This document shows positions 54,580 to 59,501 of a DNA stretch of 64,000 nucleotides, piece after piece. How positions within the stretch are numbered: position 1 is the stretch's first letter; each line of letters starts with the position of its first letter. Made by a program: the position numbers and the translations under genes. A model generated the notes under the pieces. It had not been told where the DNA came from and did not search any database. It saw only the letters and a program-made list of their open reading frames with translations. The stretch is from an uncultured Desulfobacter sp. (GTDB lineage: Bacteria; Desulfobacterota; Desulfobacteria; Desulfobacterales; Desulfobacteraceae). The DNA lies in contig OY762069.1 of the NCBI GenBank assembly GCA_963665095.1, forward strand, positions 1,408,001 to 1,472,000, read 5' to 3'.

Positions 54580-54783
54580 CTCCTGGTGAGAGGAAGCACG
54601 ATAATCAATGGAGCGACAATCAGGATAAATCAGGGAAAGGCATAACTGTATTTTCAATGATTAGCAGATGTCGCTGCGCTCCGACTGATTTTATTGGGTT
54701 TTTTAAGGCATGAGCAGGAAAGCTTGAATAATACAGAAAGGGGAAGCAGGTCAACCCCGCTTCCCCCGGCGCATTATTCAATG

Positions 54784-55026
54784 CTACCTGCTTTTGGCTA
54801 TCCCTTGCCGGGTTTCCTCCCCAGGATGTCCCGGCTCCGTTTCACCAAAACCATAAAATTCATTTTCTCTTTGTTCCTCTTGTTTGATCTCCAGCAATTC
54901 TGTCAAAAGATGATTTTCCGAGTTTATTTTTTTTAAACTGACAAGGATCAACTCCATGACCAGATTGCCCAGCTCGTCGACAATTTCAGCCATTGTTTTT
55001 TCAAGTTGTGTTTCATTGATTGTCAT
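54784..55026 (-). CDS. Hypothetical 80-aa acidic, helical protein (last gene of the nested transposon)
   Basis: RBS GAGG, starts 11 nt after the ATPase stop, same strand. Confidence 0.6.
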   Translation of the reverse strand: MTINETQLEKTMAEIVDELGNLVMELILVSLKKINSENHLLTELLEIKQEEQRENEFYGFGETEPGHPGEETRQGIAKSR

Positions 55027-55037
55027 TTTTATACCTC

Positions 55038-55862
55038 TTATCTGGTTGGCGACGGTTTCAGTGAAAAAAGCTCTATGAAAAGTTTCTCATCCAGTTGCGG
55101 CAGCTCTCTTTGAACGCCCACTTCAAGCAGTTCTGCCGACATATTATTGAGGACCCGTAAGTTTCCTGTACAGTGCTCTACCAAAGCGGTGATTAAAGGT
55201 TTTGTCATGAGTTGAGGAGCTCCGGCCTGATTTAGGCAATGCGCTATATAATCCAACAATTCTTCCCGGGTATAAGGATCCAATTTTAACCGGAACCGGA
55301 GTCGACTCCCCAGGGCTACCAATGCACTGGTTCTGAACCGTTCCGGCAGCCGGGTATCACCACAGATAATGGTGGTCAATAAATTCTGGGAGTCAAAATC
55401 CATACTGTTGAGCAACCGAAGCTCATTCAGGCATCCGGTAAGCATTTCCTGAGCCTCATCAATGAGCAGGACGGGTCTGAACAGGGTTGTTTTAATATGA
55501 TTTTTCCATCGTTGCCGCAGATCTTTGAACCCTCCGTAACGGTTGGCCGGACTCAAATTGACACCAAACAGTGTCCCCATTTCCCGATAGAAATCGGCCA
55601 CGCTGCTTTGGGGGCGCTCCATAACGCCGACAACGACTTCATCAAGCTTGCCAAGCTGATGGGCAATCGCCTGTAGTGTCTTGGATTTGCCAAGACCGGG
55701 TTCACCGGCGATTAATGCAAATCCACCGTTCATGGTCATATTTTCAAGGCGTGTAATAAATGCCTCCATCCGGGGTGGATGCCATAATGAGTCCACAGGA
55801 ATATTTGGTAAAAAAGGATTGTACTTCAATCCATAATAAGCCAATAATCGTTTGCTGTTCAT
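55038..55862 (-). CDS. ExeA/GspA-type AAA+ ATPase (transposition helper)
   Basis: YYGLKYNPF N-terminus, Walker A GEPGLGKS, Walker B LLIDEAQ, GNLRVLN; ATG overlaps the transposase TGA. Confidence 0.88.
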   Translation of the reverse strand: MNSKRLLAYYGLKYNPFLPNIPVDSLWHPPRMEAFITRLENMTMNGGFALIAGEPGLGKSKTLQAIAHQLGKLDEVVVGVMERPQSSVADFYREMGTLFGVNLSPANRYGGFKDLRQRWKNHIKTTLFRPVLLIDEAQEMLTGCLNELRLLNSMDFDSQNLLTTIICGDTRLPERFRTSALVALGSRLRFRLKLDPYTREELLDYIAHCLNQAGAPQLMTKPLITALVEHCTGNLRVLNNMSAELLEVGVQRELPQLDEKLFIELFSLKPSPTR

Positions 55863-57307: not shown

Positions 57308-57413
57308 AAATCAGGCTCCTTTTTAATTTCAGGTTAAAATTTCGGATCAACGTCTGAAATCAGGTGGTAAAACAGCCTGCATATATTTGTCTATGTTCAT
57401 CCTCTGCGCGAGA

Positions 57414-57989
57414 TTATCCGGCCCTGATTTTGGACCCGCCTGATAAGATTATCAGGCTTGATACAAGTGCGTTTTCGGCGTTGGATTTCACCGCCCGGCA
57501 ATAATTGATGAAACTTGACGGCAGACGGCTGTTACTGACACCAGCGGATATCTGCCCCCGAAGCCTTCGCCAGGTTCGGCTCACTGGAAATGTATCCTGA
57601 AAAAAGGCAAGCCAGCGGTTTATTGTGTTCCGGCTAATGCCAGTTCGTATGGACAAATCATAAACGGTGATTTTTTCATTGGTATTTTGCCAGTCTGTTA
57701 AAACACACAGAATAACTGCAAACCAGTAGACTTTTCTCCCCAGAAAACGGCAGGACGGCGGCATCAATCTTTTGCGACACCCTTCGGTTCCACAACATAG
57801 GCTGAACTGAATAAAGAATTCCTCCGGCACGCCCTCAGGCTCTCCCCGGGGCTTGCGCATGTAATTGCTGAAATATAAGGGGCCTCCACAATGCGGACAA
57901 GGCAACTGTCTGTACTGTTTTGCTGTATTTTTATCGATTTCGTAAAGATGGAAAAAAAGATTTTTGTTTTTAATAAGTTCTGATAGCAT
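57414..57989 (-). CDS. Zn-finger plus HTH hypothetical protein (first gene of the nested transposon)
   Basis: CPHCGG...CCGTEGC; HTH-like VYDLSIRTGISRNTINRW. Confidence 0.75.
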   Translation of the reverse strand: MLSELIKNKNLFFHLYEIDKNTAKQYRQLPCPHCGGPLYFSNYMRKPRGEPEGVPEEFFIQFSLCCGTEGCRKRLMPPSCRFLGRKVYWFAVILCVLTDWQNTNEKITVYDLSIRTGISRNTINRWLAFFQDTFPVSRTWRRLRGQISAGVSNSRLPSSFINYCRAVKSNAENALVSSLIILSGGSKIRAG

Positions 57990-58124
57990 ATCTCCTGCCC
58001 TGTTAGGGTAATAGGGGCAGAAGTTCCATTGATTATTTGCGAGATAAACGGGGGAGCTTCTGCCTCATCCCTGGCATATCTTGCAAATTATCTTTAATTT
58101 TTCCATGATTTTTTGTGATCATTC

Positions 58125-59501
58125 TCACTCCTGGGGAGACCGAACCCGCTGCTCAAGGAGGTTGGCGATGTATTCACATGAGAATGCAGAGAACTTAAAG
58201 GCATCTTCAATGGCCATGGCAACTTGTTCCCGGGAGTAGATTTCACTCAAGGCCACGATTTGCCGTACATGATGGGAGGCGTTAAGCCGCCTGTTCTGCA
58301 ATTGCCTGTAATACTCCCGGGCCTTGTCAGAGAGGCTTAAAAAACGCATATAAATTGCCTGGTCTCTGGCCTTTTTGCGCTGGCTCAAAAGGATTTTAGA
58401 GTGATCAGGATCTTCAAGGTCGTTTTTGCGGCCATAGGATCTGACATGGCGGGCAACCAACTTGTCTTCATGGTAAAAGCAGATCCGATCAGGGTAAAGC
58501 TTGGCAGTCAAAGCCACCCCTGCCAGCTGGGCGGGTACTGTGTAAGCATTTGTATCGATGACTACCCTGTACTGTCTTGAAGCCCGTACCTGCTTTACCA
58601 CACCGATATCATAGGGTTCTGACGGCAGAGGGTATAGGTGGGGCAATTCCAGGGCATACATCTCTGCGGGCTTTTGACCGGTCTCTCCGTGGGTTCTGAC
58701 ATTGGCGACAGTATCAAGCCAGTGTTTGCAGGTGGGCTCCATGATCTTAAAATCAGGGATTTCAAGACCGTTGAGCAGATTCTTTTTGACATAGCCCACA
58801 GCATTTTCAACCCGGCCTTTTTCATTACCCTTGCGCACATTACAGGGAACAATTGTAAATCCGTAATAATCTGCAAAATCAAGGTATCTGGGGTTGAAGA
58901 CCGGGGCTTTCCCCAGCAGTCTTTTTAGAACAGCGGATTTGAGATTGTCCACCATGACCTTTTCCGGCACCTTTCCAAAAAACTCAAATGCATTCTGGTG
59001 GCAGCCTAAAAAATGCTCCATGGTCTGGGAGACCGTGAACTCAACGTACATCATGCGGCTGTGGCACATCACCATCACAAAAAAGCTCAACCGCCGGGTC
59101 GTGTTGCCCACCCTTACTGTACTATAAGAACCCCAGTCCACCTGGGCAGCTTCACCCGGAGCAAAACTCAGTTTCAAATACGCCTTTGTTTTGGGCGGCC
59201 GCACCTTCCTGACATAATCCTCAACAATGGTGATGCCCCCGGCAAAACCATCCTGGGTGATTCGTTGAAATATCTGGCGGGAACTGTAGGGATGTTTTTC
59301 AAGCATATGCAGGATGGCGTTCTTATACGGATCAAGCTTGCTTTCTCTGGGGGCTGACTGTCTGGGCTGGTACCTTTTCAGGTTGGCCCACCTGGCAACT
59401 GTCCTGGGGTCCAGATCAAGGGCATTGGCAATCTGGCTGTATGTCAGGCCGTCTCGGGTAAAGTAATTTCTGATTTGAACATAGGTTTCGTAATCAATCA
59501 T
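58125..59501 (-). pseudogene. istA: IS21 transposase IstA, truncated by the nested insertion (458 of about 491 aa)
   Basis: N-terminal HTH, SKLDPY, PGEAAQVDWG, VDNLKSAV, EKGRVE. The stop codon is supplied by the TGA at the nested element end. Confidence 0.92.

Follow-up and report, generated by a model that had tools for sequence, protein, structure and literature searches.

Towards the end of the window, the stretch of 64,000 nucleotides from an uncultured Desulfobacter sp. analysed here (contig OY762069.1), a transposon lies inside another mobile element, and the question raised by this locus is to which family the transposon belongs and what serves in the slot behind its ATPase gene, where several of its relatives carry a primase. 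The genome, a single contig of 6.9 Mb, contains 13 complete copies, 12 identical and one at 96.7%, by which the boundaries of the transposon are established, and one left-end fragment of 351 bp; the element, which begins with TGAGA (54587) and finishes with TCTCA (58127), is a real, recently active mobile unit with TG...CA ends. An earlier note, made from the letters alone, had given the same boundaries, four co-oriented open reading frames (ORFs) and a coupling of the transposase and ATPase genes. All of these were recovered, with open minus-strand ORFs of 191, 481, 274 and 80 aa and a TGATG at 55864–55860 in which the transposase stop overlaps the ATPase start, and what that note missed was a structured non-coding motif. 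The transposon belongs to the Tn6049 group, which has a name and no classification, and falls outside IS21, IS481 and Tn7/Tn5053; the explanation that best accounts for the whole, which we hold to be reasonably likely, is a Tn6049-type core of three genes with a swappable, replication-related slot. A further and tentative proposal is that the RNA of about 150 nt, found in several insertion sequence (IS) families, would be a non-coding equivalent of a primase, priming, or bringing in host proteins to prime, the synthesis by which a transposition intermediate becomes a full copy, with Tn6049-type elements switching freely between RepB primase, DnaG primase and RNA.

The structured motif and the slot behind the ATPase gene

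Relatives were found to be encoded by 144 genome stretches, and the best 80 of these, retained as 79 loci, represent at least eight phyla, with several loci being copies from a single genome. The slot after their ATPase gene is occupied by a small protein of 56–90 aa, a primase (RepB or DnaG-type) or a RepA-type AAA_25 helicase, and in multi-copy loci the RepB and helicase genes lie inside the shared ends. In the window the slot holds ORF4, the first ~57 aa of which belong to a small helical family, while the last ~24 aa read through the structured motif; no family was found for it in Pfam, NCBIfam or PHROGs, and no atlas match. An acidic xxPF tail, reminiscent of the C-terminus of single-stranded DNA-binding protein, closes several of the relatives' small ORFs, and the window ORF4 is without this tail because the motif runs into its last codons. 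Conservation of ORF1 and ORF4 inside homologous ends, on which the earlier note had made its reading depend, held for ORF1, which lies upstream of the transposase gene in 78 of the 79 loci (the remaining one is truncated where its contig ends), and failed for ORF4, which is not universal.

The motif itself, about 150 nt long, lies at 54697–54850, near the right end of the transposon. A second element of the same genome (3,098 bp, 14 copies, no ORF4, duplications of 4–5 bp) shares about 200 bp at 80% identity near its right end, despite a transposase only 28% identical. The core of the window copy scored 73.5 bits with the covariance model, and pairing was evaluated on 99 cores (106 distinct sequences, minus 8 left out, mostly length variants, plus that of the window): 96.8% of the cells were paired, with 243 two-sided changes, and none of 500 shuffles was as high, a comparison in which related sequences may beat shuffles and in which the varying stem columns were free of pattern constraint. 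Slid controls gave 23–47%. The core is followed, in order, by a long variable hairpin, often a U-run, the tail box and, in 28 of 86 loci, a GCGNAGC mini-hairpin on the motif strand, which was found on the opposite strand in 1 locus, with a shuffle mean of 1.1.

The motif was found by profile in 9 of the 80 loci, and with a degenerate pattern in at least 119 metagenome stretches. Its neighbours include DDE and ATPase operons of several clades as well as transposases with IS3, IS481-like, IS21, ISL3 and IS110 domains, to which it is placed in tandem, convergent or divergent orientation; candidate inverted repeats enclosing transposase and motif were found by a simple scan in 8 of 19 cases outside the Tn6049 group, 7 of which look like element ends. 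All 27 genomic matches fall inside the two transposons, plasmids gave a single match, after an IS110 gene, and no match was obtained in viruses in two pattern scans or in phages. Neither the window nor any of the 20 motif loci compared, out of 119, gave a gathering-score match in Rfam 15, with nothing near threshold. In the open-access literature, with subscription journals, ISfinder and TnCentral outside the scope, no description of the motif and no mechanistic study of the Tn6049 group was found. The motif is probably a small RNA absent from the RNA family catalogue, and an uncatalogued structured motif shared with at least five other IS families is what is new here.

Three other identities were considered and rejected. 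A host core gene is contradicted by absence from 45 of 60 relatives (complete genomes included), by multiple copies in several carriers and by presence in only 2 of 150 genomes across the phylum; a small peptide gene, by changes on first and second codon positions and a one-base shift seen by eye in the window copy; and a hammerhead ribozyme, by the lack of the required A in about half of the copies and of room for the stems. A shorter variant with a different apical hairpin was observed in L242, L245 and L246 (AGGGGA loop in L242 and L245), being multi-copy in two genomes and placed there after DDE and ATPase genes. In L090 a motif with a clear promoter precedes a purD-like gene by about 200 bp, with no transposase within the contig, and is possibly a remnant or a domesticated copy.

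A TAnnnT box resembling a −10 element was present 16–18 nt upstream of the core in 40 loci of a non-redundant set of 86, whereas non-overlapping control offsets gave 13 loci at most. The spacing of the box places the predicted start at the first stem; a −35 box at proper spacing accompanies it in 15 of the 40. According to orientation classes that were assigned by hand and contain kin that are not independent, the box occurs in 14 of the 15 loci with the motif antisense to the transposase, in 6 of the 35 downstream of the DDE and ATPase operon and in 8 of the 16 other same-strand cases. At the window copy no such promoter was seen by eye. These patterns make it highly probable that the motif works as RNA, which in the window would come from operon read-through. 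It has also to be asked whether the motif acts as single-stranded DNA, that is, as a primosome assembly or single-strand initiation signal, since it folds as DNA too (z-score −5.4) and has the GCGNAGC mini-hairpin, and since ColE1 contains a similar-looking A-run box with GAGCGNAGCGA 146 nt further along the same strand. This is considered unlikely, given a promoter-like box whose position would set the start at the first stem and which occurs just where read-through is missing, the frequent G-U pairs on the motif strand and the lack of a meaningful ColE1 match with the covariance model.

The exchange of primase and motif is best seen in two sister loci, L256 (RepB) and L257 (motif), whose identity of 87–90% breaks off at the start codon of RepB and resumes with its last codons; these last codons are kept in L257, and it follows that RepB was replaced in the L257-type sister. 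Within one clade (support 100/99) RepB is found in L004, L005, L007 and L256 and the motif in the window element, L002, L003 and L257, so that at least two changes must have taken place. None of the 7 primase-bearing elements, two of which end near contig ends, has the motif, and among the 119 motif loci, 39 of which have flanks of only 300 bp, none matched RepB or Toprim and 7 matched a helicase. Since L113, L186, L197 and L236 carry ORF4 homologues (52–65%) together with the motif after ATPases of other clades, ORF4 and the motif appear to move as one module between divergent elements. Two side observations concern the primase-bearing sequences: a 2.1-kb insertion (2375–4510) interrupts the transposase of the RepB-bearing L256, and a DnaG-like sequence with CHC2 and Toprim (G000:C1:2049994-2050950) is weakly similar to the transposon-borne primases.

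From what is known of related families, the DDE enzyme would in all likelihood cut and join the 3' CA ends, and the ATPase, like MuB, TnsC and IstB, would load on target DNA and activate the transposase. Transposition would probably be replicative, by copy-out or through a cointegrate, and the intermediate would therefore have to be copied, which in replicative pathways is the work of host machinery, according to PMC7780238. The motif might replace the primase at this stage, either as a primer or as a priming signal for host replication proteins, a reading that we favour and hold with considerable doubt. If true, a non-coding RNA would do a primase's job in completing transposon copies. The family supplies natural near-isogenic pairs, with primase in one member and RNA in the other as their sole difference, and these open the priming of transposition DNA synthesis to direct test.

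Several observations weigh against the explanation as a whole. Many members, Tn6049 among them, have neither primase nor motif, so neither is required; L172 carries a lone CHC2 zinc finger beside the motif; and the mutual exclusion comes from a small and related set of primase-bearing elements and from motif loci with the short flanks given above. No covariation was found between tail box and core, and a pairing of the one back to the other was rejected on this ground. The motif loci were collected by pattern, their invariant letters are therefore invariant by construction, and the stems alone are independent. No circle (end-to-end) junction was present in the contigs of 4 sequencing runs, which drop rare forms (one was an RNA run, with related elements only), and no circle-junction promoter was found by eye.

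The same slot would also suit a hitch-hiking or host-directed small RNA (a protein sponge, an anti-defence or a regulatory RNA), acquired close to their ends by many IS families, if it were the sole cargo-tolerant position of the element, and the probability of this alternative is judged to be a little short of even. Placement next to unrelated transposases, DDE as well as DEDD, in every orientation, co-occurrence with the helicase, the terminator-like hairpin and several GGA motifs would all be explained, and Ssr9 of ISPpu9, a selfish, IS-borne RNA that is dispensable for transposition according to PMC12288879, sets a precedent. A mere passenger is harder to reconcile with the precise substitution for RepB, which extends from its start codon to its last codons, the lack of primase co-occurrence so far, the strand specificity of the downstream GCGNAGC hairpin and the confinement of the genomic copies to the two transposons.

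Genes of the transposon

The transposase was recognised by Pfam rve (4e-10) and by PHROG 310, transposase (3e-36). The ATPase matched AAA_22 (2e-19) and PHROG 296, 'DNA transposition protein' (8e-18), and in profile comparison with solved structures MuB (8xvb, 1e-9) was the best, followed by ORC1 and by ShTnsC (6e-4). Its gene lies downstream of the transposase gene in 75 of the 79 loci; three others end at contig ends and L037 is without it. A secretion protein of the ExeA/GspA kind, which would be long, with a C-terminal envelope domain, and encoded outside mobile DNA, was rejected for this protein of 274 aa inside a transposon. The ExeA-like frames of the host have about 640 codons, are 23–24% identical to it and form a separate branch, in a tree whose deep part is unsure because of long branches. 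The earlier note had suspected a poorly described family with an ATPase prone to annotation as a secretion protein, and this was borne out, the Tn6049 ATPase being named gspA in the Cupriavidus metallidurans CH34 genome paper and the Tn6049 module being one that 'could not be categorized' in a 2018 paper, and a correction is thereby supplied for ATPases annotated as secretion proteins.

ORF1 has five invariant residues (C31, C34, C66, C71 and W126, in 83 sequences), was modelled with a predicted local distance difference test score of 86.7 as a zinc ribbon with a helical domain, and links to DUF6431 clusters at 0.95–0.97. Between ORF1 and the transposase gene, 42 of 44 non-redundant elements, as counted with a regular expression drawn from the same set, have kept a box of about 13 bp, and an A/T-richer position follows about 28 nt beyond it. 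This box would be an operator just upstream of a weak promoter, bound putatively by ORF1. The hairpins of the ORF1 leader, as folded by prediction, may guard against read-through, and similar inverted repeats were read by eye at the left ends of relatives. The ends of the family follow the pattern TG(A/T)G, then a GATAATCRATGG-like box about 12 bases in. Coordinates of all features are collected in Table 1.

Table 1. Features of the transposon and its surroundings (positions in the window).
Feature	Position	Strand	Basis
Whole transposon, Tn6049 type, 3,541 bp	54587..58127	-	genomic copies and Tn6049 gene order
Target duplication CTCCTGG, ORF4 side	54580..54586	.	genome copies; empty site
Target duplication CTCCTGG, ORF1 side	58128..58134	.	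genome copies
Left terminal inverted repeat, imperfect, ~25 bp	58103..58127	-	
Right terminal inverted repeat	54587..54611	+	
Motif core: outer stem, 9x9 purine-rich internal loop, inner stem, apical hairpin with UGRGGA loop	54783..54855	-	covariation in 99 sequences
Long variable hairpin with terminator-like tip (54739-54767), then tail box	54697..54785	-	fold z-score -5
Conserved tail box ATGCCTTAAAAAACC	54697-54711	-	box in 87/107 loci
GCGNAGC mini-hairpin downstream of tail box	54673..54679	-	
ORF4, 80 aa	54784..55026	-	
AAA+ ATPase, 274 aa; named as ExeA-type, related to MuB/TnsC in profile comparison	55038..55862	-	
DDE transposase, 481 aa; D188, D253, E289	55862..57307	-	
Conserved CNCGCAGAAGATG-like box, candidate ORF1 binding site, between ORF1 and transposase gene	57398..57410	-	
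ORF1, 191 aa, zinc ribbon and helix-turn-helix, DUF6431-like, probable regulator	57414..57989	-	
Leader with alternative hairpins able to hide or free the ORF1 ribosome-binding site	57983..58092	-	two predicted folds
Host element, IS21-family: istA cut, istB intact, two extra upstream ORFs (188, 128 aa)	53652..60552	-	

Target sites and the part of ORF1

The 7-bp duplication CTCCTGG, from which a fixed length might have been expected, is present at this site, and as a fixed length it was ruled out by the 13 copies, which have duplications of 3 bp (three copies), 4 bp (two), 5 bp (one), 6 bp (five) and 7 bp (one), with one imperfect case of 6/7. One of the 3-bp cases was confirmed by 14 empty sites. 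Lengths of 3–6 bp were likewise found in 9 copies of a Desulfospira element and of 4–7 bp in 4 copies from two genomes of the same genus, and the duplications of Tn6049 measured 4–7 bp at 6 of 7 distinct sites examined, with none at one. Variable duplication length is a family trait. A search for other copies and empty sites, which the earlier note had advised, also succeeded at the window insertion, whose empty site is present in 12 genomic places and was also recovered, with the two flanks joined over 7 shared bases, in the contigs of 3 of the 4 runs. In L054, L055 and L058 the duplications are shuffled, the left flank of one copy being the right flank of another, as would result from recombination between copies, replicative rearrangement or mis-assembly.

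The target was, as had been noted, another transposase gene. It is the istA of an IS21-family element of 3.35 kb, with about 10 intact copies elsewhere in the genome, and is interrupted 33 codons short of its end; the product of an intact genomic copy has 491 aa. The two extra ORFs upstream of istA, the longer of which (188 aa) is cysteine-rich, look conserved and had no match in Pfam, NCBIfam or PHROG. Two tandem repeats of about 155 bp at 53382–53652 are apparently 5S ribosomal RNA (rRNA) genes ending an rRNA operon, and the host element begins exactly where the second repeat ends.

Beyond this site, a preference for mobile DNA was found to be weak. Three of the 13 copies lie within other repeats, against 4.2% expected (p = 0.016), and for the sister element the figure was 1 of 14; post-insertion selection, that is, survival in dispensable DNA, accounts for the bias as well as targeting does. 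No target sequence rule was visible, and the transposon enters AT-richer DNA, its insertion flanks being AT-richer than random (0.44 versus 0.49, none of 2,000 random draws being as low), a bias shared by the second element. As regards target immunity, the nearest pair of copies is 26 kb apart. Considering the 27 copies of both elements, no strand bias relative to replication was detected (9 on the leading strand, p = 0.12). The second element (for example G000:C1:333203-336300, and 13 other places) encodes a 148-aa zinc protein, a 418-aa DDE enzyme and a 269-aa ATPase, has TGT...ACA ends and many targets with ATGG/CCAT, and in one copy carries a 1.3-kb insertion.

These data bear on the model of the earlier note, a Tn7/Tn5053-like system in which ORF1, as a TniQ analogue, would steer insertion into other mobile DNA. 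A nearly universal ORF1 with zinc finger and helix-turn-helix, the repeat bias described above, the presence of 2 of the 13 copies in the same IS21 gene and the statement of the CH34 genome paper that Tn6049 is 'often associated with genomic islands' would agree with it. The likeness of ORF1 to TniQ was, on the other hand, not confirmed. The hhalign probability against Tn402 TniQ was 0.2%, with no profile likeness, and TniQ was absent from the 25 listed of the 39 Pfam families obtained with 83 ORF1 homologues. A fold search gave no match at E ≤ 0.001 and none with Z ≥ 5, the best being generic helix-turn-helix proteins (Z 4.8) with the zinc domain barely covered, and TniQ was not among the fold matches listed. 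The TniQ core, moreover, comprises about 300 aa arranged as Hel1-ZF-Hel2 according to PMC10293859. The two IS21 insertions occupy different sites with 3- and 7-bp duplications, the sister element has 1 of 14 copies in repeats, and the pattern is accounted for just as well by AT-rich flanks together with survival in dispensable DNA. The TniQ model is therefore regarded as improbable. For ORF1 we lean slightly towards a regulator that binds DNA at the conserved box in front of the transposase gene, and away from a target selector, an assignment that would rest on that box and on a generic helix-turn-helix; it is weakened by this basis and by the ORF1 of the second element, which barely scores on the ORF1 profile and is without the conserved box.

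Comparison with known systems

As regards the motif, the ColE1 RNA II primer with its n'-pas has a comparable layout; according to PMC3167613, its RNA primer is extended by Pol I, and a site for PriA assembly is thereby exposed. The likeness, for which the covariance model gave no match, is an analogy of layout only, and the motif differs in being about 150 nt long and in crossing IS families. Ssr9 of ISPpu9 is likewise a small RNA downstream of a transposase gene and differs, as described in PMC12288879, in being complementary to the antisense RNA of one IS110 element.

As regards the transposon, a TnsC/MuB-related AAA+ ATPase (by profile) is shared with Mu, Tn7 and Tn5053/Tn402, from which the element differs in having no TniQ, resolvase or TnsA. 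Tn402 TniA and TniB gave no significant pairwise match to the window proteins. Duplications in Mu, Tn7 and Tn5053 have a fixed length of 5 bp, as in Tn402, whereas those of the window transposon span 3–7 bp and are not fixed at 5 bp. The transposase scores under the cut-offs of IS481, IS3 and IS21. IS481 was its best NCBIfam model (2e-25, 89.9 bits against a cut-off of 224) and is also the label given by RefSeq to the Tn6049 enzyme, although IS481 elements have a single gene and the window transposon is multi-gene, with an ATPase. IS21 elements resemble it in combining a DDE transposase with a coupled AAA+ helper, and, according to PMC11208146, have TG...CA ends, no strong target sequence and, in many members, 5-bp repeats, with copy-out proposed. 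The window transposase reached 37.4 bits against the IS21 cut-off of 160, its ATPase had no IstB match, while the neighbouring host IstB gave 253 bits, and the conserved ORF1 is extra.

The closest system is Tn6049 of C. metallidurans CH34, which supplied the top plasmid matches with the same four-gene order and is also found on plasmid pHS87a. It is of similar size (about 3.5 kb), has the order ORF1, transposase, ATPase and small ORF, and shares identities of 38% (ORF1), 49% (transposase) and 50% (ATPase), related short imperfect TG...CA ends, variable duplication and high copy number, with 12 copies in CH34 according to the CH34 genome paper. Its ends read TGTG instead of TGAG, so that the distinctness of ends claimed in the earlier note is not supported; its ORF4 has no blastp match to that of the window, both being short helical proteins, and it is without the structured motif. 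No mechanism is given for it in the available parts of PMC13192273 and PMC3384475. A named element with the same organisation thus exists, and it is not a characterised IS family; for this unclassified group the window transposon represents an intact, very active model with an unusually loose target stagger of 3–7 bp.

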